The notes beneath the pieces were generated by a model that was given only the letters and a program-made list of their open reading frames with translations, ran no database searches and was not told the DNA's origin. A program made the translations under genes and the position numbers. Below are positions 4,081 to 23,859 of a stretch of DNA of 32,000 nt, piece after piece; the stretch's first letter is position 1; every line of letters starts with the position of its first letter. Origin of the DNA: Pseudodesulfovibrio piezophilus C1TLV30 (GTDB lineage: Bacteria; Desulfobacterota; Desulfovibrionia; Desulfovibrionales; Desulfovibrionaceae); assembly GCF_000341895.1 (NCBI RefSeq), contig NC_020409.1, forward strand, positions 1,200,001 to 1,232,000, written 5' to 3'.

Positions 4081-4087
4081 GGTAACC

Positions 4088-5687: not shown

Positions 5688-6016
5688 TCCGACCAACAGA
5701 ATGTATACAAAAAAACATTTCTTGCCTTATGTCAGAAACACAACATCGCACACGACCAGGAACTGAGGGACCTATGGCCATCATCTGTCTTGAAAACGAT
5801 AGAACGACTCGGTCCTTTGTCTATGATATACAAAGGCTTAAAGCGCATAAAGCTGCTCAAGAACACTTTCAGATAAACAGTTCACAAGAACCAAAACCGC
5901 CTATCCAAGCCACTATTCGTTATGCGAAGTCTTCAGCCTCTGCATGAGTGCCTGTCGAATATTCCTTTTCAAAAAAGGGTCATGTGCTTCTTTAAAATGA
6001 AAAAATCGGACTTGTT

Positions 6017-6946
6017 TTATTCGTTGAAGGCTTCGACAATTTTTTTGAGACCACCGAAAACGGCGGTATCAAGCTTGAGGTCGAGAGGAAGCGGATATTC
6101 TCGTCCTGTATTTTCATACTTTGGTTGCCCCATTCTGTGATACTCGAGAATTTCAAATTCAACTTTATCGCCAGGTAGGCCAGAGAGGAAATCAATGATT
6201 TCGTGCACATCCTCCTCAGTATCGTTGAATCCGGGGATGATCGGTGTGCGAACCCGCACCTGAAGAGAAGGAAAATCTTCTCGAATCCGCTTCAGATTTT
6301 CAAGAGGACGTTCATTGGACATTCCGGTGTAAGCCTTATGCTTTTCCGGATTCATTGATTTGATGTCGAACATGAGGGTGTTAACAAATGGGAGTGCTTT
6401 CTTCATTTCGTCATAGTCAGTCACGCCGCACGTTTCGACTGCGGTGTCCAAATGACGATGCCGTGCCTCACGCAACAGGGCCGTGGCAAACTCGGGCTGC
6501 TGAAACGGTTCTCCGCCGGACAGAGTCAGCCCACCACCCGATCGGGCATAAAACATTTCATCCTCTTCCACGCGCTTCAGAGCGGCATCCACTGTCATCT
6601 CTTCACCGTAGGTGATCAATGCGCCCGCAGGACACGCTTCGGCACAGTCGAGGCACTGTGCGCAGAGTTCTCGATCGATGTCGATCTTACCGTCCTCACC
6701 CTCAGTAATCGCACCGATGGCGCACACTTCTGTACAGCGAACACATTTATCCAAGCCGAGGCATTTATTACGGTTATAGGCTAGTTCAGGCTTGAACGCC
6801 TGGGATTCCGGATTACTGCACCACTTACAGCGCAAAGGACACCCTTTGAGAAAGACGATGGTGCGAATACCTGGACCGTCATGGACAGAATATTTCTGGA
6901 TTGAAAAAACAGTACCGGTTGTTTTCTTGTCAATAAGGGAGCTCAT
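6017..6946 (-). CDS. islB: glycyl-radical enzyme activating enzyme (radical SAM, IslB/IseH-like)
   Basis: 309 aa. The radical-SAM CX3CX2C motif (GCPLRCKWCSNPES) follows the GRE-activase N-terminal motif VHDGPGIRT. A Cys-rich ferredoxin-like insert follows (CLGLDKCVRCTEVC, CAQCLDCAEACP). The gene lies immediately downstream of the GRE gene. Confidence 0.85.
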   Translation of the reverse strand: MSSLIDKKTTGTVFSIQKYSVHDGPGIRTIVFLKGCPLRCKWCSNPESQAFKPELAYNRNKCLGLDKCVRCTEVCAIGAITEGEDGKIDIDRELCAQCLDCAEACPAGALITYGEEMTVDAALKRVEEDEMFYARSGGGLTLSGGEPFQQPEFATALLREARHRHLDTAVETCGVTDYDEMKKALPFVNTLMFDIKSMNPEKHKAYTGMSNERPLENLKRIREDFPSLQVRVRTPIIPGFNDTEEDVHEIIDFLSGLPGDKVEFEILEYHRMGQPKYENTGREYPLPLDLKLDTAVFGGLKKIVEAFNE

Positions 6947-6983
6947 TCATTTACCTTTGCACGGTTGGAGCGGGAAAGAGAGG

Positions 6984-7014
6984 GACAGGAGCGGCTTTTA
7001 TAGCCGCCCCTGTC
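6984..7014 (-). other. intercistronic stem-loop between GRE and activase genes
   Basis: GACAGGAGCGGC-TTTTATA-GCCGCCCCTGTC forms about 11 bp with one mismatch. No U-tract follows it on the coding (minus) strand. Confidence 0.5.
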
Positions 7015-7048
7015 GGCTTCATCAAGGATTAGGAGGCCTTGCTATGCA

Positions 7049-9544
7049 CTAGATTGTTTCGTGAGCGGTCCGACGGATCAGATCGTCCTGCAGGTCTTTG
7101 GACAGATCGCAGAAGTATGCGGAGTAACCAGCGATACGCACGATCAGGTTACGGTACTTCTCCGGCTCCTGCTGAGCAGCCTTCAATGTCTCGGCGTTAA
7201 TAACATTGAACTGAATGTGCCAGAGACGCAGGTCGCAGAAGGTACGGATAAAATCCACAAGCTTCTTAGTGCCTTCAGCGCCTTCCACGCACTTGGGGGT
7301 AAACTTGATGTTTACCAGACGAGCGGCACGCTCACGGAAGTTGAAGTTCTTGGTTGTATAGTTCGACAGCATAACTGCGGTGGGACCGTTCTTGTCTGCG
7401 CCATGGGAAGCGGAGGAACCGTCCGACAGAGGTGTCCATGCCTGACGTCCATTCGGAGTGGCGGAAACGACCTTACCGAAGGGAACATGCGATGTGAACG
7501 GCACATAACGAACATCGAGGTGAACACCCAATTCCTGCTGATACTTGTTGGCAAAGTCCACGCAGGTATGGTCAAGATCCTTGGCAATCGAATCGACGTA
7601 TGGATCATTATTTCCGAAGCAAGGAACATTTTGCAGCATGGCACGAACATCTTCCTTGCCCTCGAAGTTATTCCGGCAAGCTTCGATAACTTCTTCCATA
7701 GTCAGCTTTTTTTCTTCAAAAACCAACTTCTTGATGGCAGACAGGGAGTCTACAACAGTACCGACACCCATGAACTCAAAATAACCGAGGTCAATGCCTT
7801 CGGGGACTTTGGGCTGGTGCAAATCCACAGCATGTTTCATGCACAGGTCATGCATGGCGGAGCCAAATGGCGTCGCAAAATGATTTTTGCGATTATTGAT
7901 AACATGATACTGCTGAGTAAAGGCAGTCTTCAGGAAGTGAATCTGCTGGGTTTTGAAGGCAGTATAAAACTCTTCCCACGTTTCAAAGGAAGTAGGGTCC
8001 CCAGTTTCGATGGAGAGGAGTTGATCGCCGTACTTCTGCATCCGGCCATTATACATGGCCATCTCCAGGGCTGCGGCAAAGTTGATGTATGCATTACCGG
8101 ATGTATAAGTATCGCGATTGGGCATACGGATCTCGGCACAACCGGAAACGGCGTAATCATAAATCTCTTCGAACTTGGCTCCCTTGGACAGATGCAGGGG
8201 AATGACCTCTTCATCGTTAATAAGTTTCGGGAAACCAGAGCCTTCCTTGATGGTTTCAGCAACTTCGGCAAGAAAACGTTCAGGAGAGCGGGCATGAATA
8301 CGGGCGGCAAGGTCCGGGTAATGGTGTGGGAACTCCCGCTTGGACCGCAGGAAAAGGTAGGTCAGTTCATTGGTGGCGTCGATGCCATCCTTGGTCTGTC
8401 CACCGACAGTGACAGCCTCCCAGTGGGCGTATCCTTCGTTGAAGGCACCACCTTGAGGAGATATATAGAGGTCTATGAACTGAGCCATGCCAACATACAT
8501 GCACTCAATTAATTCAATGGCCTGGTCATCGGTCAGGATTCCGGCTTCAACATCCTGCACGTAGTAGGGATAGAAGTACTGGTCCATTCGTCCATTGGAA
8601 ATAATGGTACCGGTTTTTTGCTCAATGCGGGAAAACATCTGGGTGATCCACTGAGACTGTACAGCCTCGCGGAAGTTACACGCGGGGTGCTCGGGAACGC
8701 GACGGCAGTTGGCAGCAATCATTTCCAACTCGGCCTTGCGGGTCGGGTCAGATTCTTCGGAGGCCAGTTTTTCAGCCAGATCGGCATGACGGTTCGCCCA
8801 CAGGATGACGGCATTGCAAACGCGAACAATAGCCTCGTAGAAAGGCTTTTTCTCTGCGTTATCTGTAGGAGACATGGGATCAAGGGCATCCAGGTGTTCC
8901 TGGGCCTCATCACGAATACCACCGAAGCCACGCTTCAGAATCTTTTCGTAATCGTGTACCCACTGCAAAGAGGAACGGAAGGAAGATGTCTCATTAACGA
9001 TGAAACGGGAATTCAGCCCGTCAGGGTCATCGTAGGTCAACTTGTGAATTTCTTCCGGCAGCGCAACATTGAGGGCTTCGTGATATGTCTTCCCCTTCCA
9101 GAATGGAGCAATCTCCTCAACAACAATGCGCGTGTCTTCTTCGGTAATGGAGAAGGGAGAACCTTCGCGTTTGGGCAATTCTTCGACTGCCATATCCAGA
9201 AAATCGCCGTCCAGCTCGGGGTACAGAATACCATAACGCCCCTGGTAACCAGCGCGACCGGCCAGCAGCTGATCATCATCAATGTAGACAGTGATATTCG
9301 CGGCAACGTGCTCCATGGCCTTGGCCCAACGAAGAATGAGCGATTCGCCTTCGGTTTCCTTCATGGACTGGGTGAAATACAGGGCGCGCTCAACGTCGAT
9401 CTGCGGCTTCAGATTTTCGATACGATCGAGAATCCTGAAGACGCGGGCATGATTCTTGCGGAACTTGTCCTCTTTGCCCTCTATACGATCCTGCAGGCGC
9501 TGTTCATGCGGGGTCATGGTCTCGCAGCAATGCACATTCAACAT
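7049..9544 (-). CDS. islA: glycyl radical enzyme, isethionate sulfite-lyase-like C-S lyase (IslA/IseG family)
   Basis: 831 aa. The C-terminal glycyl-radical motif is [10 protein letters not shown] (G806) and the Cys loop is SGCAE (C469, E471). R190, Q194 and R679, plus W375, V681 and F683, sit exactly one residue offset from the numbering I recall for IslA/IseG. AAGGAG lies 8 nt upstream of ATG 9544. The generic GRE call is very confident. The substrate call is moderate. Confidence 0.8.
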
Positions 9545-9635
9545 TGATCCTACTCCTTGTGTGTTCTATGTGGGTGCTTTCACGATGGGAAAGCTCTGTT
9601 GCAACCCTTCGCCATCCGGCGACAACTCTCTACTG

Positions 9636-9650
9636 GCAAAGGGTGTGCCA
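9636..9650 (-). promoter_or_regulatory. sigma54 (-24/-12) promoter of the GRE-activase operon
   Basis: The minus strand reads TGGCAC-ACCCT-TTGC, an exact match to the TGGCAC-N5-TTGC consensus, about 90 nt upstream of the GRE start codon. Confidence 0.8.
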
Positions 9651-9758
9651 AACTCCACAAATACAACAAAATCCACATAAGTAGCTAGAATCAAAAACTT
9701 AAAATCAAATCGCCACCACACAACCAAATCATGTGTCAAGGCTGGACCACATCCTCAA

Positions 9759-9774
9759 GATGCAGTTTTGCATC
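9759..9774. promoter_or_regulatory. candidate enhancer (UAS) box GATGCAGTTTTGCATC
   Basis: A 6-4-6 inverted repeat about 115 bp upstream of the sigma54 promoter. It belongs to the TGCA-N4-TGCA box family also found at 9828, 9846, 13363 and 13441. Confidence 0.5.
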
Positions 9775-9825
9775 GTGCCACCTCAGCAATAGAGATTTCC
9801 AATAATTTCAGATTAGTATAAAAAC

Positions 9826-9859
9826 GGTGCACAATTGCATCGTGATGCAATTGTGCACC
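9826..9859. repeat. 34-bp perfect palindrome; candidate UAS and/or terminator of the regulator gene
   Basis: GGTGCACAATTGCATC-GT-GATGCAATTGTGCACC. Each arm contains a TGCA-N4-TGCA box. On the minus strand it is followed by GTTTTTAT and sits about 80 nt after the regulator stop codon. Confidence 0.6.
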
Positions 9860-9939
9860 ACCCACCATCTCTCACCCAAAAGAAAAGGCCGTCCTGTCAA
9901 ACAGGGCGGCCTTCGAACACAACAGTGTTAACTCAAAAA

Positions 9940-11385
9940 TCAGTTTTCACGCTCATCGCCGGACAAACCAACCTTCTTGAGTTTTCGAAAGATTGTTGTC
10001 CGATTGATTTTGAGCCGCTCAGCGGCTTCGGTCATCGAACCGTACCGTTCAATGGCGTGCAATAAATACTGAGCTTCCACCTCCGCCATAATCGTTTTGA
10101 AATCCTTTCCCTGCTCATTCTCGATATCAAATCCGATCTGCCCCGGTTCACACTGCATGGCAGAGGAATCAAGCATCCGCATAGGGAGGTGCCGCAACTC
10201 CACACGCTCATCATGGGTGGTGACAGCCAGGCTATGCATCAAGTTCTCCATCTCGCGGATATTCCCATCCCAGCGATAATTGAGCATGGCCTCCTCCACC
10301 TTGGCCGAGAGCTTGAGGTTACGCTTGTATTTGGTATTGAACTGTTTGCGAAAGTAGAAGAGCATGGCATGGATATCCTCACCACGCTCACGCAAAGGGG
10401 GTATACGTATAACCGCCACATGGAGACGGTAAAAAAGATCACTCCGAAAATTTCCCTGCCGGACCTCTTCCTCCAGATCTCTGTTGGTAGCCGCGATGAT
10501 GCGCACATCGATCTGGCGTGCCCTCGTTGCTCCGACCCGCTGTATTTCACTATTCTGAAGCACCCGAAGAAGCTTGCTCTGCATGGAGAGTGGCAACTCA
10601 CCTATCTCGTCGAGGAACAAAGTCCCCTTATCCGCCATCTCAAACATCCCGGCCTTGCCTCGAGAATCTGCGCCGGAAAATGCTCCGGGCGCATAACCAA
10701 ACAGCTCTGATTCAATGAGATTCTCCGGGATTGATGTACAGTCGACCTTGAGAAATGGTTGTCCCTTGCGCGTGCTCTTCTCATGCACCTCGCGAGCCAT
10801 GACATCCTTTCCCACGCCGGTCTCGCCGAGAAACAAAATGGTGGCATCAGTCCTTGCCACCCGTCTCACCTGATCATAGAGGTCCACCATAACGGAACTG
10901 GAAGGCTGATACAGACTCTCATTATGCTGTTGGATCTCATGTTTATACTTATTGATGAGCTGTTTTTGGGCGACCACCTGCTCCTTGAGCTGGGAGATCA
11001 ACGCAATATCGCGCACAAATGTGACAACCAACTCCACATCCTCGTCATAATCAAAAATGGGATGAGCCATGAGGACGACCTTGCGCCCTTTATTGGTCAT
11101 TTGCACTGCGGTGGCTGCCTTCTTGGTCTGCACCACCTTGGCGTTCAGAGCGAGATCAAAGACCCCACTCTCAACAAGGTCTTTGACGTTCTTGCCAACA
11201 ATATCCTCGGACTTCAGGCCGGTCAGATTTTCGTACATTTCGTTGACAGTCAGGGTTTCGCCTTTGTTGTCTGTAATATACAAACCGTCCCGCATAGTAT
11301 CAAAGACCTGACACAGATAGCTGGAAATCAAATATTTGTTCTTTGATGCAATGCGGCGAGACCGCTTTCCCGTATTATTCTTCAT
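9940..11385 (-). CDS. sigma54-dependent transcriptional activator (PAS sensor, AAA+, Fis-type HTH)
   Basis: N-terminal PAS-like segment ([29 protein letters not shown]). Walker A GETGVGKD, sigma54-contact loop GAFSGA and Walker [11 protein letters not shown] are present. The C-terminal HTH is [25 protein letters not shown] lies 6 nt upstream of the ATG. Confidence 0.9.
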
Positions 11386-11416
11386 GTGCGTCCTTTCCGA
11401 CTCGGGAGTTCTTTCA

Positions 11417-12145
11417 TCAGAAACAGGAGAGTATCACTGATACCCCGGCGGTCATGATCACGACCAGAATGATTTTTCGGTATACCGCCTGTGTGACACA
11501 TCGTGAAGCCAGTATCCCCACACCCCCGCCCACAAGGGTTGCGGGAATTCCCATGGCCGAATAGTTCAGAGTCTCCATAGTCTCTGAGCCGGTGAGAATC
11601 TGCCCTACCAATAGAGTAATGCCTGATAACACAAAGCAAGCCCCCAACATTCCTTTAGCTGTTTTCTGTTCCCAACCGCCCATGGAAACATAAACCGCAA
11701 GCGGCGGGCCATTAAAGCTGAACAACGCTCCAAGCATGGTAGAGAAAAACCCCGCAACGACTCCCCATCGGCCATACGACCGCCCCTGAACCACAATGCG
11801 TTGTCGCAACAAAGAATCAATGCCGTAGAACACGAGAAACAGGCCCATGGCTAATCGGAGCCATTCATCCGGTATGGACTGCATTATCAGCATCCCCGCC
11901 GCCACACCGAGCACGCCACCCGAAGCGACAAAGCGCATGGCTCGCCATGGGATGTGATGACGGTACACCCAGGCCATCTGGAGATTGAGCATAATGATAA
12001 TGGGCATGGCGCTGACCACCGCCGTCTCCATGGGAAGGACTGTTGTCACCACGGGCATGGCGACCATTGCAGCACCGAATCCGGCAAGATTATTGACCAC
12101 TCCGGCAGCGAACCAGGCAGCACAAAAGATGACTGTATCGAACAT
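11417..12145 (-). CDS. TauE/SafE (DUF81) family membrane anion transporter, putative sulfite or sulfonate transporter
   Basis: 242-aa polytopic protein with two Gly-rich repeat halves typical of DUF81 (NNLAGFGAAMVAMPVV ... GIPATLVGGGVG). Only 31 nt separate it from the downstream regulator gene. Confidence 0.75.
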   Translation of the reverse strand: MFDTVIFCAAWFAAGVVNNLAGFGAAMVAMPVVTTVLPMETAVVSAMPIIIMLNLQMAWVYRHHIPWRAMRFVASGGVLGVAAGMLIMQSIPDEWLRLAMGLFLVFYGIDSLLRQRIVVQGRSYGRWGVVAGFFSTMLGALFSFNGPPLAVYVSMGGWEQKTAKGMLGACFVLSGITLLVGQILTGSETMETLNYSAMGIPATLVGGGVGILASRCVTQAVYRKIILVVIMTAGVSVILSCF

Positions 12146-12157
12146 GGTTTTAAACTA

Positions 12158-12172
12158 GCAAATTACCTGCCA
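12158..12172 (-). promoter_or_regulatory. sigma54-type promoter in front of the tauE-like/regulator operon
   Basis: The minus strand reads TGGCAG-GTAAT-TTGC with correct GG/GC spacing. The -12 element ends only 12 nt before the ATG. Confidence 0.55.
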
Positions 12173-12226
12173 TGTTCTGTTGCGCGATGCAATCGGATAA
12201 AAGGAAAGAGCTTCGAATCAAATGCA

Positions 12227-12241
12227 TGGTATGGACCTTGC
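12227..12241 (+). promoter_or_regulatory. sigma54-type promoter of the amidohydrolase gene
   Basis: TGGTAT-GGACC-TTGC(T) with correct GG/GC spacing, 47 nt upstream of ATG 12289. Confidence 0.6.
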
Positions 12242-12288
12242 TTTATCTGGGTGCGCAAACGCGCAGCCAACCATAAGGAGTTATTTCA

Positions 12289-13125
12289 ATGAAGGTTATT
12301 GATTTCAGATTCAGGCCCAATACCCCAGAAGTCATCACCGGCATCGCCAACAGCGCCATGTTCAAGGACTTGTGTGAAGCTATCGATTTCCACAAACAAA
12401 AAGCAGAACCGTTTGACCAGATTATCGAAGGACTTGATAAACATAACGTGGTCAAAGCCGTCATTACCGGCCGCGATTGCGAGACCACATACGCATCCAT
12501 GGCCAACGGCAATAGTGCCGTGCTCGACTTCTGCACGAAAGCACCTGAAAAATACTTTGGATTCTGGGGTATTGATCCACACAAGGGTATGGACGCCATT
12601 TACGACCTGCAACAGGCCGTGACCGAGAATGAAACCATCAACGGAGCTGCCATAGACCCGTACCTGGCTAAGATTTATCCCAATGACGCCAAATATTATC
12701 CCGTCTACGCCAAGTGCTGTGAACTCGACATTCCCATCATTTTCACCACCGGTACTGCCAGCTTCGTACCGGGCGCGGTCATCGACCATGTGGCCCCACG
12801 CTACATCGACTTTGTTGCCCGCGACTTCCCTGATCTCAAAATCATCATGAGCCACGGAGGGTATCCGTGGGTCAATGAATCCATTATCGTGGCTCAGCGC
12901 AACAAGAACGTGTTCATTGAATTCTCCGAATATGAGCTGTGGCCCATGGGTCATGTCTATGTCGAAGCAGCTAATACCACCATTCCAGACAAGATCATGT
13001 ATGCCAGCGCCCACCCATTCATCGATTACCGTGAGCAGTTGGGAAAGTATGCGGCACTCCCATTTGCGGACGATGTCAGAGAGAAAGTGATGTACGGCAA
13101 TGCTGCCAGAATTCTCGGACTGTAA
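12289..13125 (+). CDS. amidohydrolase-2 (TIM-barrel, COG2159-like) family protein with non-canonical active-site motifs
   Basis: 278 aa with family-like strand motifs (MKVIDFRFRP, IIMSHGGYPW, MYASAHPF, YGNAARILGL). AAGGAG lies upstream of the ATG. Confidence 0.75.
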   Translation: MKVIDFRFRPNTPEVITGIANSAMFKDLCEAIDFHKQKAEPFDQIIEGLDKHNVVKAVITGRDCETTYASMANGNSAVLDFCTKAPEKYFGFWGIDPHKGMDAIYDLQQAVTENETINGAAIDPYLAKIYPNDAKYYPVYAKCCELDIPIIFTTGTASFVPGAVIDHVAPRYIDFVARDFPDLKIIMSHGGYPWVNESIIVAQRNKNVFIEFSEYELWPMGHVYVEAANTTIPDKIMYASAHPFIDYREQLGKYAALPFADDVREKVMYGNAARILGL

Positions 13126-13169
13126 AACTTTGCTTGCCCTCAGGCTAAACGGCATATGCAGTTAGGCCA

Positions 13170-13205
13170 ATGCCTTGGTCGAAAGGCTCGGCCAAGGCAT
13201 CTTTT
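13170..13205 (+). terminator. rho-independent terminator after the amidohydrolase gene
   Basis: ATGCCTTGG-(13 nt)-CCAAGGCAT forms a 9-bp stem followed by CTTTT. Confidence 0.6.
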
Positions 13206-13362
13206 AAGAGCCAATATCCTTGTTTTCCTGACTCGTAAAAGCTCATTAAACCACTCCCTCTCCCATGGCCGCCAGCGAATAAAAAGCTTAGTGCCTTCCT
13301 GTCTGACCACAAAATATTTTTCTTACCCACCAAAAGACAGACGATGCAAAAACGCACCATGT

Positions 13363-13374
13363 TGCAACTTTGCA
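13363..13374. promoter_or_regulatory. candidate UAS box TGCAACTTTGCA
   Basis: With flanks it reads GTTGCAACTTTGCATC, which matches the 9759 box at 13 of 16 positions. It lies about 270 bp upstream of the TRAP sigma54 promoter. Confidence 0.45.
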
Positions 13375-13440
13375 TCAAGTTTAAAACTTGTGTAAATTAA
13401 AGTATTTAATCGAGATGCTACAAAAATGTATCGTGACCAA

Positions 13441-13452
13441 TGCAGGTTTGCA
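13441..13452. promoter_or_regulatory. candidate UAS box TGCAGGTTTGCA
   Basis: Same TGCA-NN-TTTGCA family, about 190 bp upstream of the TRAP sigma54 promoter. Confidence 0.45.
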
Positions 13453-13461
13453 ACGTCCGAC

Positions 13462-13569
13462 GGTTATTGATACGTCTTATCCACTGCACCGGGATCACAT
13501 AGTCTTCACCAATCGCCCTCTCCCTACTACCGCTTGTTTTCATTTAACTTTACCCGGTATTGATACGTC
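13462..13569 (+). repeat. two direct copies of GGT(T)ATTGATACGTC
   Basis: Copies lie at 13462-13476 and 13556-13569, about 94 bp apart, between the TGCA boxes and the sigma54 promoter. Confidence 0.6.
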
Positions 13570-13632
13570 ATCTAAAAAATCATGACTGTTTTAGTCAGAT
13601 TTTTTCACTGATAATGAATTGTTTCACAAAGC

Positions 13633-13647
13633 TGGCACATCATTTGC
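13633..13647 (+). promoter_or_regulatory. sigma54 (-24/-12) promoter of the TRAP transporter operon
   Basis: TGGCAC-ATCAT-TTGC(T) is an exact consensus match, 60 nt upstream of the dctP-like start. Confidence 0.85.
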
Positions 13648-13665
13648 TCAAATGGGGTTAGGTAA

Positions 13666-14730
<1,065 letters not shown>

Positions 14731-14760
14731 GCTGGTCCCGAAAGACATAAGGAATATCTC

Positions 14761-16644
14761 ATGGAACACGTAATACCGCCGACACATACTACCGAAGAAG
14801 CGCCAAAAAAAGGGCTAATCAGCTGGATCGACGAGAATATCGAGAAGCCCTTCCTTTTTATCGGGTTACTCTCCATCATCCTGATCATCACCTTTCAAAC
14901 CTTTTACCGCTACGTCATCACACAATTCACCGATGGCGCGGGGTCCGCAGTCTGGACCGAAGAGCTTGCACGGTTCATTTTCATCTGGATCTCATATCTG
15001 GCAGCTTCCATTGCTATCAAACGCCGTGAGAATATCCGCGTCGATTTCATTTATGACAGGCTACCCAAGAGCTGGCAGCCAACGTTCTGGATCGTCAATG
15101 ACCTCTGCTATCTGGTGTTGGGCATCGTGGTTTTGGTCATGGGAACCGACCTTGTCAGCTTCCAAATCCGCTTCCCGCAGATCGCCCCGGCCCTTCAGAT
15201 CCCCTACTACATCCCCTATATGATCCTGCCTATCGGGTTTGGTCTCATGAGTATCCGGCTCGTGCAGGATATCATGAAGGAGATCAAGACTGCTGGCATC
15301 AAATCCCTCGGAGCTGCCATCGTGATCACTGCGGCCATCTTCGCCCCTGTGATCCTCGGCATTGACATCGCTACCACCACCATTCTCTTCGGCTACTTCG
15401 CCCTCTTCCTGGTAGTCGGCGTCCCCATCGGCATCAGCCTCGGCTTGGCTTCCCTGGTCACCCTGATCGGCTCCGGCACGCTGCCCATCGATTACATAGC
15501 CCAGGTTTCCTTTACTTCGATTGATTCATTCCCGATCATGGCGATCCCGTTCTTCATCGCCGCGGGTATCTTCATGGGGTCCGGAGGACTGTCCACCAGA
15601 CTACTGAATCTGGCCGACGAATTGCTCGGCCCCCTGCCCGGTGGCATGGCTCTCGCAACCATCGCTACCTGCATGTTCTTCGCGGCCATATCCGGCTCCG
15701 GCCCGGCCACTGTCGCGGCCATCGGTTCGCTGACTATCCCGGCCATGATCGAGCGTGGATATGACAAGTACTTTGCCTGCGCGATTGTTGCCGCAGCTGG
15801 TGCTATCGGGGTCATGATCCCGCCTTCCAATCCGTTCGTCATTTACGGTGTCGCCTCCCAAAGTTCCATCGGCAAACTGTTCATCGCCGGTGTCGTTCCC
15901 GGTGTACTCACCGGACTTGTTCTGATGGGCTTCAGCTATTGGTACTCAAAGAAAAAAGGATGGATGGGCGAAGCCAAAGAACGTTCCGTCACCTCCATCT
16001 CCAAGGCTTTTTGGGATGCCAAACTTGCGCTGATGGTTCCGGTCATCGTTCTCGGTGGCATCTATGGCGGCTTGATGACTCCCACCGAGGCTGCCGCCGT
16101 TGCAGCCTTCTATGGCCTGATCGTCGGTCTCTTCGTCTACAAGGGGCTCAACATGGGCAACATAGTGGACGCCTTCATGGAAGTCTGCTCAACCTCGGCC
16201 ATCGTCATCATCCTCATGGCCATGGCAACCGTGTTCGGCTACGTTATGACCGTTGAGCAGGTTCCAGCCAAGATCGCATCCTTCATCCTTGGTGTCACGG
16301 AAAGCAAGATCGTCATCCTGCTGCTCATCAACGTCCTGCTGCTCATCATCGGCACCTTCATGGAGGCTCTGGCCGCCATCGTCATTCTCGTACCGATCCT
16401 GCTTCCAATCGTGACCAAGGTCGGTGTCGATCCTGTCCACTTCGGTATCATCATGGTCGTCAACCTTGCCATTGGATTCGTGACCCCACCAGTCGGCGTC
16501 AACCTATTCGTGGCCTCAAGTGTCGCCAAAGTGAAGCTGGAGGATATCTCCAAACAGATTCTGCCGATCCTCGGATTGATGATCCTTGTCTTGCTGGCGG
16601 TCACCTACATCCCGGAAATATCGTTGATATTCGTCGGCGACTAG
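14761..16644 (+). CDS. TRAP transporter fused small/large permease (DctQ-DctM fusion)
   Basis: 627-aa polytopic ORF. The N-terminal ~190 aa are DctQ-like, followed by a ~430-aa DctM-like domain. AAGGAA lies upstream of the ATG. Confidence 0.9.
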   Translation: MEHVIPPTHTTEEAPKKGLISWIDENIEKPFLFIGLLSIILIITFQTFYRYVITQFTDGAGSAVWTEELARFIFIWISYLAASIAIKRRENIRVDFIYDRLPKSWQPTFWIVNDLCYLVLGIVVLVMGTDLVSFQIRFPQIAPALQIPYYIPYMILPIGFGLMSIRLVQDIMKEIKTAGIKSLGAAIVITAAIFAPVILGIDIATTTILFGYFALFLVVGVPIGISLGLASLVTLIGSGTLPIDYIAQVSFTSIDSFPIMAIPFFIAAGIFMGSGGLSTRLLNLADELLGPLPGGMALATIATCMFFAAISGSGPATVAAIGSLTIPAMIERGYDKYFACAIVAAAGAIGVMIPPSNPFVIYGVASQSSIGKLFIAGVVPGVLTGLVLMGFSYWYSKKKGWMGEAKERSVTSISKAFWDAKLALMVPVIVLGGIYGGLMTPTEAAAVAAFYGLIVGLFVYKGLNMGNIVDAFMEVCSTSAIVIILMAMATVFGYVMTVEQVPAKIASFILGVTESKIVILLLINVLLLIIGTFMEALAAIVILVPILLPIVTKVGVDPVHFGIIMVVNLAIGFVTPPVGVNLFVASSVAKVKLEDISKQILPILGLMILVLLAVTYIPEISLIFVGD

Positions 16645-16973
16645 CGATTCACAAACTCACTCATGCCCTCCGTACAGGAACTGTTCGGGGGGCTTCTTAT
16701 GCGGCCCCACGTCAAGGAGGATGGACCTCGTTGTCCATCTCAATGGAGGTCATGGCAAAACTGAAACAAGCAAGAACTCATGTTCCTTTCCAAGAAAAAA
16801 TCCTTATTGCAACGTATATCCAAAAAACCAAAACAGACAGCCCTCCCCAATATATTGGACATAAGTTCCCACAGACCTCTTGCCTCGTCCAACCTTCTTT
16901 CCAACACAGGCCCTCCTTCGAAAGAAGTTGAATTATCCACAAAGAAATATTCCGTTCTTGACAAGCAAAACAC

Positions 16974-16989
16974 TTGGCAGTATTGCCAA
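16974..16989. promoter_or_regulatory. palindromic operator candidate TTGGCA-GTAT-TGCCAA at the arsR-1 promoter
   Basis: A 6-4-6 inverted repeat that overlaps a TTGACA (16958-16963), 17-nt spacer, TATTGC arrangement and ends 4 nt before ATG 16994. Confidence 0.45.
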
Positions 16990-16993
16990 ATGA

Positions 16994-17299
16994 ATGCACA
17001 CGGATATTGTCATAACAAAACAATTCAAGGAACGCGCGAAGATCATGAAGGCCATGGCACACCCTTCACGACTCATGATGGTTGATGCTCTCTCCCACGG
17101 AGAAAAGTGCGTGTGTGACCTGCGGGAACTTGTTGGATCGGACATGTCAACCGTCTCCAAGCATCTCTCTGTCTTGAAAAAGGCTGGCATCGTGGAGGAT
17201 GACCGTCGCGGGAAGCAAGTTTATTATCGTCTACGAGTTCCCTGCATTTTAAATTTTTTCCATTGTATTGAGTCTGTTCTGGACGCAAATAAGCAATAA
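16994..17299 (+). CDS. arsR: ArsR/SmtB-family metalloregulator
   Basis: 101 aa with a winged-helix core (AHPSRLMMVDAL ... CVCDL ... STVSKHLSVLKKAGIV). The CVC metalloid-binding motif sits in helix 3. An alternative start is at ATG 17045. Confidence 0.85.
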   Translation: MHTDIVITKQFKERAKIMKAMAHPSRLMMVDALSHGEKCVCDLRELVGSDMSTVSKHLSVLKKAGIVEDDRRGKQVYYRLRVPCILNFFHCIESVLDANKQ

Positions 17300-17332
17300 T
17301 TTTTTTAGCTAAACACTTGGCGGAATAACCAA

Positions 17333-18430
17333 ATGAAAGATGTGAAGACTCCATCAAACAAGACAAATGAAGCGGAACAAAACGTCGAACCAGAAATAGC
17401 AATCAAAGGGAGCGGGATAATGCTCCAGCTTGCACTCGGGGGTATCGCAGTTGCTGTATGGTATGGAATATACAGTCAACTACTGCCTTTTGCCAATTGG
17501 TTCGCATATTCCCTCCTGGGTCTTTCTCCCCAAAGCCATCTGGGCTCCGCTATTCAATTTTTCGTTTACGACACGCCAAAAGTACTCATGCTCCTTTTGT
17601 TGGTGGTCTTTTTCGTTGGCATTGTGCGCTCATTTGTGACGGTCGACTGGACGCGACGGATACTTGCAGGAAAGAAGAAATCTATTGGTAATATTCTCGC
17701 AGCGCTCCTTGGGGTTGTCACACCATTTTGTTCCTGCTCGGCTGTCCCCCTGTTCATCGGATTCATGACTGCCGGAGTGCCACTTGGCGTTACCTTTTCC
17801 TTTCTCATCTCAGCTCCAATGGTTAATGAAATTGCTCTTGTCCTGCTTTATGGTTTGCTTGGGTGGAAGGTTGCCGCGCTGTATTTTGTCACAGGCATCA
17901 GCGTGGCCATCGTTGCTGGCTGGGTGATGGGGCGCATGAAGTTGGAAGCTCATGTCGAAGATTGGGTCATGGCTATCCGTGCGGGAGAAAGTGGCCTTGA
18001 TGATCAACAGATGACTTGGAAGCAACGATTTCATTCTGCGCTTGATTCGGTCAGGGACATCGTCGGACGAGTGTGGAAATTTGTCGTCATTGGTATCGCC
18101 GTTGGAGCTGGTATCCACGGCTATGTACCGGAAGGGTATCTGGCAGGTATCATGGGCGATTCAACATGGTGGTCGGTGCCACTTTCAGTCGTCATAGGCA
18201 TCCCGATGTACACCAATGCCGCAGGAGTCATTCCCGTGGTAGAAGCATTGCTCGGCAAGGGGGCGGCCCTCGGCACTGTCTTAGCCTTCATGATGAGCGT
18301 CATTGCGCTGTCTTTCCCGGAAATGGTCATCCTTCGCAAGGTACTAAAACCTCGTCTCATCGCCATCTTCATTGGCGTTGTGGGCTGTGGCATATTGTTT
18401 GTCGGCTACCTGTTCAACGCTATAATTTAA
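17333..18430 (+). CDS. COG0701/DUF318 permease, ArsP-like
   Basis: 365-aa polytopic protein with an intramembrane TPFCSCSAVP motif (a Cys-x-Cys pair). It has the usual arsR / permease / small thioredoxin-like protein synteny. Confidence 0.75.
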   Translation: MKDVKTPSNKTNEAEQNVEPEIAIKGSGIMLQLALGGIAVAVWYGIYSQLLPFANWFAYSLLGLSPQSHLGSAIQFFVYDTPKVLMLLLLVVFFVGIVRSFVTVDWTRRILAGKKKSIGNILAALLGVVTPFCSCSAVPLFIGFMTAGVPLGVTFSFLISAPMVNEIALVLLYGLLGWKVAALYFVTGISVAIVAGWVMGRMKLEAHVEDWVMAIRAGESGLDDQQMTWKQRFHSALDSVRDIVGRVWKFVVIGIAVGAGIHGYVPEGYLAGIMGDSTWWSVPLSVVIGIPMYTNAAGVIPVVEALLGKGAALGTVLAFMMSVIALSFPEMVILRKVLKPRLIAIFIGVVGCGILFVGYLFNAII

Positions 18431-18452
18431 ATAAAGAACAAAGGAGATTATT

Positions 18453-18683
18453 ATGAAAATTCAAGTCATGGGACCAGGGTGCCCGAAATGCGCTGAAGCG
18501 GAAAAGAACGTCAAAGAGGCTGTCGCAGAAAGCGGTCTTGAAGCAGAAGTCGTGAAGGTCTCTGATTTTCAGGAAATAGCTTCCTTCGGCGTCTTCTCCA
18601 CACCTGCCGTGGCAATCGATGGTCAAGTCAAGGTCGTTGGCAAAGCTCCCAGTAAAAAAGAAGTGCTGGAGTGGCTGAAATAA
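18453..18683 (+). CDS. small thioredoxin-fold protein (redox-active disulfide protein 2 type)
   Basis: 76 aa, MKIQVMGPGCPKC..., with a CPKC redox motif. AAGGAG lies 7 nt upstream. Confidence 0.85.
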   Translation: MKIQVMGPGCPKCAEAEKNVKEAVAESGLEAEVVKVSDFQEIASFGVFSTPAVAIDGQVKVVGKAPSKKEVLEWLK

Positions 18684-18969
18684 TTCATCAACAAGACAGA
18701 CTTGTGTTCTTTCGGACAAAATCTGCGCTCATGCCTGCACAAAGTTCATCGTCGCCTCTCCGAAGACTGCCGACATGAGCGAACTTCCCGAGAGAACCGA
18801 CTGGCGGCGACTCGGTAGCACACTCAGATGACCGGTTTCGTCAGAGCTGGAGAAATATCTAAAAAAAACAATAAAACTGTCGGATTAAGAGTGACAAAAA
18901 ACCATTCTTGATAGCCAGAAAAACTCTCCCACAGAGAACCTTTTACCATCTCCAAGGAGACAATTCGTT

Positions 18970-19389
18970 TTGCAAAAAATCATTTCTCTCACTCTCAGCC
19001 TCATGCTGCTGGGAGTATTTCTTGTTGCCTGCTCCCAGGAAACACCCATACCGGAAAAGGAGGTCTCATCATCTGACCTGATTTCGGGCAAACCACAGGA
19101 CCTGCCGGTTCAAGGGATGGTTACCATGGTAGACATCGGTGCTCATGAGTGTATCCCATGCAAGATGATGACACCGATAATCGAAGAGCTATCCCAGCAA
19201 TATGAAGGAAAGGCGGTAATCGCATTCATTGATGTCTGGGAACATCGTACGGAAGGCTCAAAGTACGGCATCAGCTCAATCCCCACGCAAATATTCTATG
19301 ATGCTCAAGGCAAAGAACGCTTTCGCCACGTCGGCTTTCTGGATAAAGACAGTATCGTGAAAAAACTGGCTGAACTGGGCGTTAAGTAG
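18970..19389 (+). CDS. thioredoxin-family lipoprotein (extracytoplasmic, CIPC active site)
   Basis: TTG start with AAGGAG 10 nt upstream. Lipobox LVAC is present. The thioredoxin fold carries HECIPCK, and PT follows later (SIPTQIFYD, the cis-Pro region). Confidence 0.8.
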   Translation: MQKIISLTLSLMLLGVFLVACSQETPIPEKEVSSSDLISGKPQDLPVQGMVTMVDIGAHECIPCKMMTPIIEELSQQYEGKAVIAFIDVWEHRTEGSKYGISSIPTQIFYDAQGKERFRHVGFLDKDSIVKKLAELGVK

Positions 19390-19396
19390 GTCCACA

Positions 19397-20095
19397 GTGG
19401 ATCATATATTCGTTCTCATCAATCAATGGATGACATCCGGGATTCTGCTCGGAGCATTGGGGTGCTTTCTTTGGGGCATGGTCAGTGTTCTGTTCAGCCC
19501 CTGTCATCTGGCTTCAATTCCACTTATCGTCAGCTATGTGGCAGGACAAGACAAGGTCATTGAGGGACGCCAGGCCACAATGTACGCTCTCCTCTTCACC
19601 AGCGGCCTGTTCATCACAATCGCGTCCATAGGCATAATCTGCTCCCTCCTTGGTCGTATGCTGGGTGATGTGGGGTCCTCCTGGACTCTCGTCGTCGGCC
19701 TGATACTCCTGTGGGTATCTCTGGACATGCTTGGCGTGTCCAAGTGCTCCATGTCCGGCGGAATGATGTCCAAGTTGAAAGTGAAGGGAATGCTTGGCGC
19801 TTTCATCATCGGACTCGCCTACGGAATCCTTTCGGGTTCATGCACATTCGGCTTCATCGCCCCTATCCTGGCTGTCATCACGGTACAGGGAAAGATTCTT
19901 ACGGGACTCACCTTTATTCTTCTCTTCGGCATAGGCCATTGCATCCCTATTGCTGTGGCGGGAAGTTCCACAGCCATGGTCAAAAAACTCCTTGCCAATA
20001 CAGCATGGCAACGAGGCGGTTTGCTGTTTCGACGCATCGCAGGCACGACAATTGGCTTCTTGGGGATATATTTCATAGCCCAACCTTTTTTCTAG
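19397..20095 (+). CDS. ccdA: CcdA/DsbD-type thiol:disulfide electron-transfer membrane protein
   Basis: 232-aa six-helix protein with the two intramembrane Cys motifs (LFSPCHLASIPL and SGSCTFGFIAPIL). GTG start lies 5 nt after the thioredoxin stop. Confidence 0.8.
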   Translation: MDHIFVLINQWMTSGILLGALGCFLWGMVSVLFSPCHLASIPLIVSYVAGQDKVIEGRQATMYALLFTSGLFITIASIGIICSLLGRMLGDVGSSWTLVVGLILLWVSLDMLGVSKCSMSGGMMSKLKVKGMLGAFIIGLAYGILSGSCTFGFIAPILAVITVQGKILTGLTFILLFGIGHCIPIAVAGSSTAMVKKLLANTAWQRGGLLFRRIAGTTIGFLGIYFIAQPFF

Positions 20096-20411: not shown

Positions 20412-20768
20412 ATGCATCTCATGGAACAACTTGCTGAACGCCTCAAAGGTCTTTCCGACCCAACCCGTCTTCGTTTACTGGCTCTGCTTGATTGTGGAGA
20501 ACTCTGCATATGCGACCTGATGGAAGCCTTGAGCCTCCCGCAATCCAAGGTGTCGAGGCATATGTCATTTCTGAAAAAAAGTGGATGGGTGACCAGTCAT
20601 CGAAAAGGAAAGTGGGTATATTACACACTCGCCGATCCTGACGACCAACTTCAAGTCGCCATATTGACGACTCTGCGAGAATACCTTCCCAACCTTGCGG
20701 TAGGGGCTGAAGACCATGAACGCCTGAAACAATACTTAAAAATCAAGAACGCCGACTCGTGCGGCTAA
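20412..20768 (+). CDS. arsR: ArsR-family arsenic-responsive repressor
   Basis: [13 protein letters not shown] ... ELCICDL ... [17 protein letters not shown] is a canonical ArsR core with a CxC site. An alternative start is at ATG 20421. Confidence 0.9.
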
Positions 20769-20785
20769 CCAATCAAGGAAAAATC

Positions 20786-23850: not shown

Positions 23851-23859
23851 GAGAAAATC

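Follow-up and report, generated by a model that had tools for sequence, protein, structure and literature searches.

Amidohydrolase-fold proteins with arginines at the former metal site, probable accessories of isethionate sulfite-lyase

The gene considered here has been conserved together with the IslAB isethionate sulfite-lyase microcompartment, and it has never so far been explained. In the window (the whole stretch of 32,000 nucleotides of Pseudodesulfovibrio piezophilus C1TLV30 that we analyzed), it lies at 12289..13125 on the plus strand and encodes 278 amino acids. We argue that its product, an amidohydrolase barrel that has exchanged all four of its metal ligands for other residues, is very probably an accessory of IslAB, and we think it reasonably likely, with less assurance, that the protein handles sulfonate or sulfite species. 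In other words, what does an amidohydrolase do once its metal ligands have gone, and why does it keep company with an enzyme that yields sulfite?

The fold is the simplest part of the problem: the protein is a well-folded (beta/alpha)8 barrel of the PF04909 amidohydrolase family. A preliminary description of this DNA, made from the letters alone, had suggested a family HMM search and a structure prediction; the first gives a confident match to PF04909 (Amidohydro_2, E=1.6e-33, 117 bits against a cutoff of 26.4), and the second, with AF2, gives a well-folded TIM barrel (pLDDT 95, pTM 0.92) whose Foldseek matches are all PF04909 structures, the best of them 3IRS at a TM of 0.83. A search of the same 278 residues against NCBIfam produced no meaningful match and no curated name. 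On the model, DSSP calls strands at residues 3-5, 54-60, 89-94, 117-122, 150-153, 185-188 and 208-211, and the eighth strand, around residues 236-241, is our own assignment outside those calls.

Metal-dependent members of PF04909/cog2159 (ACMSD, the gamma-resorcylate and 2,3-DHBA decarboxylases, LigW, the LigJ hydratase and LigY) have the same fold and the same strand-6 histidine, and they are the next-best Foldseek matches (TM 0.65-0.73). They hold Zn or Mn through a strand-1 His/His (or Glu), a strand-5 His and a strand-8 Asp, whereas in the window protein, whose key motifs read MKVIDFRFRP, MSHGGYPW and MYASAHPF, every one of these ligands is replaced. Arginines stand at the strand-1 HxH site in D5-F-R7-F-R9-P10 (codons 12301..12318, plus strand); the equivalence of R7/R9 with HxH comes from our own alignment of 121 representatives, the stretch was examined by codon check, column statistics and covariation, and it is invariant in the diverse alignment that we call A1. 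In profile alignments with solved PF04909 enzymes, T153 (12745..12747, plus), within 'viTtG', falls on the His of 'IYLHPA/LYIHPA' and so takes the place of the strand-5 ligand, an assignment that covariation also backs. A241 (13009..13011, plus) falls on the catalytic and ligand Asp of strand 8 in FSTDWPF (gamma-resorcylate decarboxylase), YAMDYPY (LigW) and YAADYPY (3NUR). H189 (12853..12855, plus), a candidate general base, falls on the His of 'GHMG/GHWG', and its column holds His in 115 of the 121 representatives. After the published ACMSD and LigW structures, we take the T153 column to be the strand-5 ligand and the H189 column to be a strand-6 position that does not bind metal.

These alignments bear out the preliminary description where it saw HxH become RFR and the strand-8 Asp become Ala. 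They divide its further statement that the strand-5/6 His region was kept: the motif MSHGGYPW is indeed retained, but a ligand role is not, since H189 is the strand-6 non-ligand and the ligand His of strand 5 has been lost as well. The loss is more complete than had been stated, that is, four ligands rather than three. Could the HxH simply have slipped to another place in the chain? The seven histidines lie at 35, 52, 98, 167, 189, 222 and 242, no HxH occurs anywhere in the 278 residues, and with the alignments in agreement a shifted motif is ruled out.

Nor is the replacement an accident of one genome. Across 121 full-length representatives (50% identity), arginine occupies both 7 and 9 in about 72; 63 of these have Ala, Gly or Ser at 241 and only one has Asp, and most have Thr at 153 and Arg at 62. 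The proteins with His at both positions keep D241 in 14 of 16 cases, and all of the His/His rows listed have His at 153. At the level of sequence, it is thus confirmed that the four-ligand replacement did not arise by chance, because the changes covary across a large clade. A third arginine, R62, followed by D63 at the end of strand 2 (codons 12472..12477, plus; placed by alignment A1 and the DSSP strand limits), is invariant in A1 and recurs in about 91% of the clade as sampled, and the clade alignment also shows D63, D96, D/E123, D133, H189 and E197 to be conserved. All of these lie at or just past the C-terminal ends of the barrel strands, where amidohydrolase active sites are found, which suggests a site that still functions, not one in decay.

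For convenience we call this the RxR clade, defined in our analysis by D-x-R-x-R-P on strand 1, R62, T/S153, H189 and A/G/S241. The window protein has every one of these features (with Thr at 153 and Ala at 241), and a neighbor-joining tree makes the clade monophyletic. As read from its sequences, it is a large clade in which the ligands have become Arg, Arg, Thr/Ser and Ala/Gly/Ser, and it contains PDB 3IRS. That structure (also 3K4W) is BB4693 of Bordetella bronchiseptica, an 'uncharacterized TIM-barrel protein' that matches the window protein over residues 2-276 by phmmer (E=1e-29) and the clade profile at E=5e-68. Its motifs are KIIDFRLRP, SHGNWPW and FGTAYP, with the same Arg/Arg, the same kept His and the same change of Asp to Ala; at about 27% identity, it gives us the fold and no chemistry. 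BB4693 comes from an aerobe, and we know of no IslAB context for it. The preliminary description had allowed that such a subfamily might already have an unrelated function assigned to it; our literature search found no published function for the RxR family and no paper on BB4693, 3IRS or 3K4W, its only solved member. Some plasmid matches proved to lie outside the clade and form no part of our argument, namely those in Sphaerotilus and Acidovorax (H-x-Y, with the Asp kept) and those in Paracoccaceae and Pseudosulfitobacter, where Pro takes the place of His.

The window itself contains an IslAB locus. The glycyl radical enzyme IslA/IseG (7049..9544, minus strand) matches PDB 5YMR at 1382 bits and 7KQ3 at 1360 bits, and its R190/Q194/R679 are the counterparts of Arg187/Gln191/Arg676, the sulfonate ligands of IseG. 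Pfam identifies four further neighbors: IslB/IseH, the radical-SAM activating enzyme (6017..6946, minus); a PAS, sigma54 AAA+ and HTH enhancer-binding protein (9940..11385, minus), likely the regulator of the locus and of a type that recurs beside orthologues of our gene; a divergently transcribed TauE/SafE-family anion (sulfite) exporter (11417..12145, minus); and a TRAP transporter (13708..16644, plus) made of a DctP-type binding protein (13708-14730) and a fused DctQM (14761-16644). A pattern search finds four sigma54-type -24/-12 sites, all consensus matches only, one each before islA (9650-9635, minus), tauE (12172-12157, minus), the amidohydrolase-fold gene (TGGTATGGACCTTGCT, 12227..12242, plus, 47 nt 5' of the ATG) and dctP (TGGCACATCATTTGCT, 13633-13648, plus). 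We looked for shell genes in the window and found none. Recombinant IseG is active in vitro without the amidohydrolase-fold protein (PMC6453916).

How general is this neighborhood? Orthologue loci were gathered by a genome scan with a close alignment, A2 (A1 was too divergent for the purpose), and in 81 of 85 of them an IslA/IslB-like enzyme and/or microcompartment genes lie within 10 kb. Pseudodesulfovibrio, Desulfobaculum and Moorella all have the orthologue in IslAB loci, the linkage extends across Desulfobacterota, Bacillota and others with the gene orders rearranged, and relatives at 42-45% identity still adjoin glycyl radical enzymes of the IslA/HpsG type. The reciprocal survey, seeded with IslA, found the gene in 19 of the 24 metagenome loci whose flanks reach at least 6 kb on each side; it is absent within 10 kb from the other five of these well-flanked loci and so is not universal. 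The preliminary description had supposed a linkage to sulfonate genes and had proposed a survey of the subfamily's distribution and surroundings; the linkage proves strong and recurrent, and the RxR clade proves wide, with IslAB and ssu/msu/sfn clusters returning as its neighbors.

A skeptic might answer that we are looking at an ordinary PF04909 enzyme with no role in sulfonate metabolism, possibly one that binds metal through D5, D63, D96, D133 and H189 (conserved acidic residues that could in principle hold Mg2+ or Ca2+), and that the clustering is mere co-inheritance. RxR members do occur without obvious sulfonate context, in Caballeronia (beside MR/MLE, FAH and MFS genes), Hydrogenophaga (a TTT binding protein) and Desulfolutivibrio (TRAP only), and elsewhere in the clade the arginines may simply bind carboxylates. 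We nonetheless find co-inheritance very hard to believe, given a linkage that holds over Desulfobacterota, Bacillota and others, through rearranged gene orders and down to 42% identity, a second orthogroup that is also linked in unrelated aerobes, and a C-terminal tail whose gain and loss track shell genes.

The second orthogroup deserves a closer look. In all seven of the distinct contexts that we read, it lies inside FMNH2-dependent desulfonation clusters, among Bac_luciferase genes of the SsuD/MsuD/SfnG kind, FMN reductase, ACAD-like genes and an SsuA-type transporter. In Methylobacterium nodulans, the gene adjoins TauE, formate dehydrogenase and a four-component Rieske oxygenase, whose alpha subunit carries CxH-X26-CxxH, the published signature of MsmA (PMC4433239). 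The msm link appears in one of three plasmid-borne msm-like clusters, those of Burkholderia and Paraburkholderia being without the gene. In the neighbor-joining tree, the Isl-linked and Ssu-linked groups are not sisters, a relationship that would have made a shared function more convincing. What do a glycyl radical lyase, the flavin-dependent monooxygenases and a Rieske oxygenase have in common? Unrelated in mechanism, these three classes meet only in aldehyde plus sulfite, or in the preceding 1-hydroxysulfonate, and it is this that leads us to think of adducts.

Adducts of aldehydes with bisulfite are thermodynamically tight, and at neutral pH they dissociate slowly, in a base-catalyzed reaction that passes through the alkoxide. 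From gene context, we tentatively propose, at somewhat less than even confidence, that the protein is a metal-independent lyase that equilibrates 1-hydroxyalkanesulfonates, that is, these same adducts. As IslA yields equimolar acetaldehyde and sulfite, the two must form 1-hydroxyethane-1-sulfonate, an isomer of isethionate that is also the tight adduct of acetaldehyde with bisulfite, and the enzyme would catalyze, reversibly and without metal, 1-hydroxyethane-1-sulfonate <-> acetaldehyde + sulfite. The arginine triad R7/R9/R62 in the former metal site would bind the -SO3(-) or sulfite group, and H189 or a neighboring carboxylate would serve as general base. Such a lyase would keep acetaldehyde free for aldehyde dehydrogenase and sulfite free for Dsr or TauE, and the ssu/msu/sfn/msm orthogroup would do the same job on hydroxymethane- and 1-hydroxyalkane-sulfonates. 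Since a lyase can only speed an equilibrium, any benefit would hang on kinetics.

To our knowledge, schemes of the IslA, SsuD/MsuD/SfnG and MsmABCD routes always show the 1-hydroxysulfonate breaking down, or the products separating, spontaneously. A bolder and still more tentative suggestion is that the RxR clade comprises the first enzymes known to cleave alpha-hydroxysulfonates, supplying the missing last step common to these desulfonations, with an arginine triad in place of the metal and, in the isethionate microcompartments of gut sulfide producers such as Bilophila, with a peptide that targets them as cargo.

Might the protein act earlier, before IslA? The preliminary description had suggested a screen on sulfonated esters, amides, lactones and carboxylates; in that spirit, the enzyme might work on a sulfonated precursor, splitting an ester or amide of isethionate or taurine, for example, or carrying out a step of the lactonase, decarboxylase or hydratase type from which the sulfonate substrate results. 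PF04909 does include lactonases, decarboxylases, hydratases and C-C hydrolases, a sulfonate would offer the arginines a fitting handle, and the sigma54-type matches before both the gene and the transporter can be read as co-regulation. We doubt it all the same, since an IseG-associated TRAP binding protein takes isethionate itself (Kd 0.5 uM, PMC6453916) and thereby makes a precursor needless, and since the ssu, msu and msm clusters import simple alkanesulfonates that need no prior hydrolysis. Moreover, the general-base Asp for hydrolysis is missing, and packaging with IslA in a microcompartment points to a step at IslA itself or later.

That packaging is itself a prediction, drawn from the orthologues. 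A C-terminal tail of the encapsulation type is present in all 58 of the 58 shell-gene loci and in none of the 17 short forms, and it consists of a linker rich in Ala, Ser and Pro and then an amphipathic helix (the maximum hydrophobic moment averages 0.60, and 0.45 in shuffled tails); on a long-form orthologue, AF2 places the helix at 288-306 after a low-confidence linker. Like the N- or C-terminal encapsulation peptides of cargo such as EutC, PduD and PduP, the orthologues carry an amphipathic helix of about 15 residues behind a flexible linker, as in DLVGDIVREVMARLGR or IIESVIKELAKRG, and targeting by this means is predicted for them. The window protein is a short form that ends in ...ARILGL at residue 278, without a tail and so without this feature of microcompartment cargo.

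Tails and sites bear also on the thought that the protein catalyzes nothing, and only binds isethionate, sulfite or their adduct as a lumenal sulfite buffer or chaperone, as a cargo scaffold or as a ligand-sensing partner of the sigma54 activator. To lose all four metal ligands, and with them the catalytic Asp of strand 8, is what pseudoenzymes typically do, and in both orthogroups the gene often adjoins a sigma54 activator. Yet H189, D63, D96, D/E123, D133 and E197 are kept at the mouth of the barrel across a deep clade, which suggests catalysis; a protein with predicted targeting to the microcompartment lumen ill fits a partner of a DNA-binding regulator; and a stoichiometric buffer would be too slow for catabolic flux. 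We consider a binder without catalysis unlikely.

Sulfite also does damage, and the protein might undo it, acting on S-sulfonated thiols (S-sulfo-CoA or S-sulfocysteine) or on sulfite adducts of NAD+, flavin or PLP. Sulfite is the common product of all of the linked systems (IslAB, ssu/msu/sfn and msm), microcompartment lumens rich in cofactors would be vulnerable, and the gene's neighbors in Aliarcobacter include cysteine synthase and cysteine transport genes. Against repair stand the few disulfides of strict anaerobes, the weakness of NAD+ and free-flavin sulfite adducts and the expectation that no other species comes near the aldehyde adduct in tightness or abundance; we judge repair quite improbable.

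Is there precedent for the lyase that we prefer? LigI and the cog3618 lactonases show that metal-free catalysis on an amidohydrolase fold is possible. Lactonases of the LigI type keep the His/His/His/Asp set and use the Asp as base, whereas the window protein lacks that set and fills the site with arginines; a cog3618 relative, PDB 4I6K, is a distant structural match at Foldseek rank 48. Hydroxynitrile lyases offer a chemical parallel: a base deprotonates the alpha-hydroxyl and a stabilized anion, CN-, leaves the aldehyde adduct, in a reversible reaction that in most classes needs no metal. The analogy is one of mechanism only, with sulfite in place of CN-; the folds are unrelated, and we found no relation in sequence or structure.

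Should the protein indeed resolve adducts, it would give the isethionate pathway a new enzyme activity and a step that drugs could target, and it would explain how a compartment that concentrates aldehyde and sulfite together keeps both from being locked into a dead-end isomer of its own substrate. The 'spontaneous decomposition' written for SsuD, MsuD, TauD-type and methanesulfonate monooxygenases would need revision, which would matter for sulfur cycling in the sea and the atmosphere, where hydroxymethanesulfonate itself occurs in abundance. Enzymologists would gain a clear example of guanidinium groups taking the place of a metal site in the amidohydrolase superfamily, an idea for whose testing the 3IRS crystal structure is already at hand.

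Much intestinal H2S arises by a main route in which Bilophila and Desulfovibrio respire isethionate and taurine. Gut colonization requires the IslAB microcompartment (PMC12125255), and a gene at the end of its cluster, beside a PduS-like gene, has been listed and not studied (PMC8667426); that table entry is all that we found in literature joining an amidohydrolase with isethionate, microcompartments or alkanesulfonate monooxygenase, and the supplement of PMC8667426 makes no mention of the cluster's amidohydrolase gene. Transposon mutants of WCP94_002051 are depleted in the mouse gut (PMC12125255), with log fold changes of -5.6 to -15.7 in five of six conditions (PMC12125255 Supplementary Data 1), a phenotype that may be polar because the gene sits at one end of the operon. 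WCP94_002051 is matched to the window protein by name and position only, and unlike the IslAB microcompartment cluster, the window has a short form in a locus without shell genes. Bilophila also has a family of metallo bile-salt hydrolases (PMC13081902), which are Amidohydro_3 proteins (PF07969) with a dinuclear metal centre; the window protein has no match to PF07969 and does not belong with them.

The gene's own expression signals are simple. A ribosome-binding site, AAGGAG, is read from the sequence at 12275..12280 (plus), and RNA folding gives a terminator-like hairpin (13170..13208, plus) with a 13-bp stem (13170-13200) followed by CUUUU / CUUUUAAG. The preliminary description had credited the gene with its own sigma54 promoter and terminator: the promoter stands, as the consensus match TGGTATGGACCTTGCT, and the hairpin folds, but a stricter consensus terminator scan does not call a terminator at 13170-13200. 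On the opposite strand, a 289-residue ORF (12286..13155, minus) spans the entire amidohydrolase-fold gene, and we regard it as a shadow ORF.

What kind of active site is left when an amidohydrolase gives up its metal ligands? The 278-aa protein encoded at 12289..13125 (+), with AAGGAG 8 nt upstream, is by fold and HMM a member of PF04909 (Amidohydro_2). Its Pfam match (E=1.6e-33) is local and begins only at residue 41, and a search of NCBIfam with it gave no model; PDB 3IRS/3K4W, "uncharacterized protein BB4693" from Bordetella bronchiseptica, matches full length (residues 2-276, E=1e-29), covers the N-terminus and also reads KIIDFRLRP...SHGNWPW...FGTAYP. An AlphaFold2 model from a 30-sequence alignment (pLDDT 95, pTM 0.92) alternates strands and helices as in a (beta/alpha)8 barrel, and Foldseek ranks 3IRS first (TM 0.83), followed by LigJ hydratase and PF04909 decarboxylases. 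The closest characterised object is 3IRS, a structure without a function. A 289-aa ORF (12286-13155, -) lies antisense across the entire gene and was treated as a shadow ORF. One homologue (P0021, 436 aa) has an internal tandem duplication of ~160 residues, with FLGFWGIDPHKG...ANVYMDLS present twice, which probably reflects recent duplication or an error of assembly.

For column assignment, we aligned a clade profile to solved PF04909 enzymes. The strand-8 Asp (FSTDWPF in gamma-resorcylate decarboxylase, YAADYPY in 3NUR, YAMDYPY in LigW) falls at A241, the His of IYLHPA/LYIHPA at T153 and the His of GHMG/GHWG at H189; from published ACMSD and LigW structures, we take the T153 column to be the strand-5 metal ligand and the H189 column to be the nonligand His of strand 6. 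HxH, sought throughout the protein, is absent. Given these columns and a total of seven histidines without an HxH, the alignment has all four metal ligands replaced (R7, R9, T153 and A241) and only the nonligand His kept. Loss of the canonical ligands, as the preliminary description had it, is thus borne out by R7/R9 and A241 and by the missing HxH; its "retained strand-5/6 His" holds for strand-6 H189 and fails for strand 5, where Thr has replaced the ligand. Of the four ligand features by which metal-dependent PF04909 enzymes are defined, the protein lacks three, and it is distinct from the metal-free LigI type as well, where the ligand residues are kept.

The substitutions are real and complete, and not chance. 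Searched exhaustively with HMMER, 1.84 billion cluster representatives yielded 3760 relatives, and among the best 150 of these, 121 full-length sequences were aligned. About 72 of the 121 have R/R at 7 and 9; at position 241, 63 of these carry A, G or S and a single one carries Asp, with position 153 mostly T and position 62 mostly R. In the same alignment, D241 is kept in 14 of 16 H/H proteins and H153 in all H/H rows listed. In a neighbour-joining tree, the "RR-T-A/G/S" sequences form a monophyletic clade, set apart from a mixed, intermediate group and from an HHHD outgroup. Among 30 sequences sampled from this clade, D5, R7, R9, R62, T153, H189, S213 and P243 are among the positions that never vary, and D96, D123, D133, E197 and R204 are near-invariant; these residues map to, or just past, the C-terminal ends of the DSSP-assigned barrel strands. 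Amidohydrolase active sites lie at just these strand ends, and because the conserved residues cluster there, the active site looks rebuilt rather than decayed.

The surrounding genes, assigned by domain search, are those of isethionate breakdown. On the minus strand are a radical-SAM activase (IslB, 6017-6946), a glycyl radical enzyme (IslA, 7049-9544), a PAS-sigma54-HTH activator (9940-11385) and a TauE/SafE exporter (11417-12145); on the plus strand, a DctP-type TRAP binding protein (13708-14730) and a fused DctQM (14761-16644) follow. The top structures for the glycyl radical enzyme are isethionate sulfite-lyases (5YMR, 1382 bits; 7KQ3, 1360 bits), ahead of HpsG (6LON, 1186 bits), and its R190, Q194 and R679 correspond to Arg187, Gln191 and Arg676, the sulfonate ligands of IseG (PMC6453916). 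Pattern matches of the sigma54 -24/-12 type precede islA (9650-9635, -), tauE (12172-12157, -), the amidohydrolase gene (12227-12242, +) and dctP (13633-13648, +; a perfect TGGCAC-N5-TTGCT). With its own such match and, 3' of its stop codon, a 13-bp hairpin followed by CUUUU, the amidohydrolase gene looks like its own transcription unit inside one sigma54 regulon, in keeping with the promoter and terminator first proposed for it. The tauE site ends just 12 nt upstream of the annotated ATG (12145), which leaves the transcript almost without a leader unless translation in fact starts at a codon further downstream.

How general is this linkage? A 90%-clustered database holds 1336 homologues, in Desulfovibrionales, Desulfobacterales, Moorella, Peptococcaceae, Desulfosporosinus and others. 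Regulator, amidohydrolase gene, TRAP transporter and glycyl radical enzyme occur together in all three fully read loci (Pseudodesulfovibrio, Desulfobaculum and Moorella), the Moorella locus additionally holding a full microcompartment gene set. Scanning one genome per species found a relative in 220 species; among 85 neighbourhoods (the 80 best loci and 5 earlier ones), 81 encode an IslA/IslB-like enzyme or contain microcompartment genes no more than 10 kb away, and relatives of just 42-45% identity still adjoin IslA/HpsG-type enzymes. Reciprocally, metagenome contigs queried with IslA gave 24 loci with at least 6 kb of flank on each side; 19 carry the amidohydrolase gene (53-91% identity) and 5 do not, which makes it a frequent but not obligatory partner of IslA and upholds the suggested fit with a sulfonate context. 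In the IslAB microcompartment cluster of B. wadsworthia, the gene is tabulated, without discussion, as "hypothetical protein, predicted amidohydrolase" (PMC8667426); the association has been noted by annotators and never explained. In Desulfitobacterium sp. Sab5 (2994-19335), three ORFs the size of glycyl radical enzymes (3997-6492, 13318-15765 and 16855-19335), one IslA-like (70% identity) and another just 44% identical to IslA, and two activase-sized ORFs are all found no further than 20 kb from the amidohydrolase gene.

Many orthologues are longer (302-323 aa) by ~30 C-terminal residues: an Ala/Ser/Pro-rich linker, then an amphipathic segment such as DLVGDIVREVMARLGR or IIESVIKELAKRGM. Across the 85 loci, the tail is present in 58 of 58 with shell genes within 10 kb, all 17 short forms (278-287 aa) lack shell genes nearby, and 10 loci have the tail and an available flank without shell genes. 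The window protein is a short form, and no shell genes occur in the window. Maximum hydrophobic moments average 0.60 for the tails vs 0.45 for shuffled tails, and AF2 on a long form predicts a helix (288-306) behind a linker of low confidence. Microcompartment encapsulation peptides are built in this way, those of EutC and PduD being similar, and the tail implies that the long form acts inside the compartment with IslA, hence at or after the lyase step.

Fold, ligand replacement, residue conservation, gene linkage and the tail are observed; as to ligand, chemistry and physiological role, we infer the following. Aldehydes combine with bisulfite at very high affinity to give 1-hydroxysulfonates, whose dissociation at neutral pH is slow and base-catalysed via the alkoxide. 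Because IslA sets free equimolar acetaldehyde and sulfite within a compartment that retains aldehyde, the adduct 1-hydroxyethanesulfonate, an isomer of isethionate, should form and tie up both products. R7, R9 and R62, at the former metal position, could hold the -SO3 group and stabilise sulfite as it leaves, while H189 or a nearby carboxylate (D63, D96, D123 or E211) takes the hydroxyl proton, so that the RxR enzyme (named for R7/R9) would equilibrate adduct with aldehyde and sulfite, chemistry analogous to that of hydroxynitrile lyase. Against the need for such a lyase, recombinant IseG works without the amidohydrolase (PMC6453916). The proposal is specific, testable and potentially far-reaching.

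A second, distant orthogroup of the RxR clade points to the same chemistry. By tblastn of plasmids, a member (IIDLRSRPA, VVGRD, YHGSYPF, FATSYPF) was found inside an ssu operon of Aliarcobacter cibarius, beside a sulfonate ABC transporter and ssuD; its orthogroup has 1197 hits, many from methylotrophs. The neighbours are a sigma54 activator, FMN reductase, two Bac_luciferase and two ACAD-like genes in Methylospira mobilis; Bac_luciferase, FMN reductase, a sigma54 activator with an SsuA-like domain and an ACAD-like gene in Azospirillum cavernae; Bac_luciferase, an ACAD-like gene and an SsuA-type ABC transporter in Methylophilaceae; FMN reductase, an SsuA-type binding protein, Bac_luciferase, an ABC transporter and an ACAD-like gene on two near-identical metagenome contigs; sfnG, msuE, ssuD and an ACAD-like gene in Azospirillum sp. 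B510; and a sigma54 regulator, sfnG, ssuD, an ACAD-like gene, ribB and msuE in Methylocystis iwaonis. Each of these seven distinct contexts is a cluster for FMNH2-dependent desulfonation. The radical (IslA), flavin (SsuD/MsuD) and Rieske (MSAMO) enzymes have no mechanism in common; their common output is aldehyde and sulfite, and the accepted mechanism of the SsuD/MsuD and MSAMO oxygenases runs via a 1-hydroxyalkanesulfonate. Counting against shared chemistry, however, the two sulfonate-linked orthogroups are not sisters in the neighbour-joining tree.

On Methylobacterium nodulans pMNOD01, an RxR member adjoins TauE, formate dehydrogenase and a four-component Rieske oxygenase whose alpha subunit has CxH-X26-CxxH, the published MsmA signature of methanesulfonate monooxygenase (PMC4433239). 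Two msm-like four-component Rieske clusters, on plasmids of Burkholderia sp. RPE67 and Paraburkholderia graminis (L184, L185), have a sigma54/Fis regulator, MFS and TSUP/TauE-like transporters and aldehyde dehydrogenases; the RxR amidohydrolase was not found in them. The P. graminis cluster has dmpG and an acetylating acetaldehyde dehydrogenase nearby, a hint that its substrate is a C2 or C3 sulfonate and not methanesulfonate. In one Azospirillum locus (L090, 5736-7844), the sigma54 activator beside the Ssu-type amidohydrolase bears a sulfonate-binding domain that is SsuA/NMT1-like; its positional counterpart in another (L180, 4652-6829; ~725 aa), annotated just as a sulfonate ABC binding protein, is probably a regulator of this kind as well. 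Other RxR members neighbour TTT or MFS carboxylate-type transporters and aromatic-acid genes, and the clade overall probably binds various anions. Plasmid p1 of Desulfolutivibrio sulfoxidireducens (3550-9882) carries an RxR member (IIDCRIRPP), a sigma54 regulator, a three-gene TRAP transporter and a YdhR-family protein, with no glycyl radical enzyme at this locus; it may be another anion-processing module of the clade.

Transposon mutants of B. wadsworthia WCP94_002051, which by name and position only we take to be the orthologue, gave log fold changes in the mouse gut, alone and with the SIHUMI consortium, of 0 and -15.7 in small intestine, -6.6 and -7.5 in colon and -6.4 and -5.6 in stool, values resembling those of other isethionate microcompartment genes (PMC12125255 Supplementary Data 1). 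Since the gene sits at one cluster end, polar effects are possible.

Elsewhere in the window, a possible island for resistance to arsenic or organoarsenicals comes directly after the TRAP genes, with an ArsP-type permease (17333-18430), a DsbD-like membrane protein (19397-20095) and an SBF/ACR3-type transporter (20759-21889). At 23398-26022 and 26250-27464, 2Fe-2S and molybdopterin-binding subunits of the xanthine-dehydrogenase/aldehyde-oxidoreductase family, possibly linked to aldehyde handling, are followed by a PAS-LuxR regulator. At 28315-30457, a lysine 2,3-aminomutase (LAM_C + radical SAM) and a GNAT acetyltransferase, their ORFs as called overlapping by ~200 nt, resemble ablA/ablB of N-epsilon-acetyl-beta-lysine osmolyte synthesis, which fits a marine or halotolerant host.
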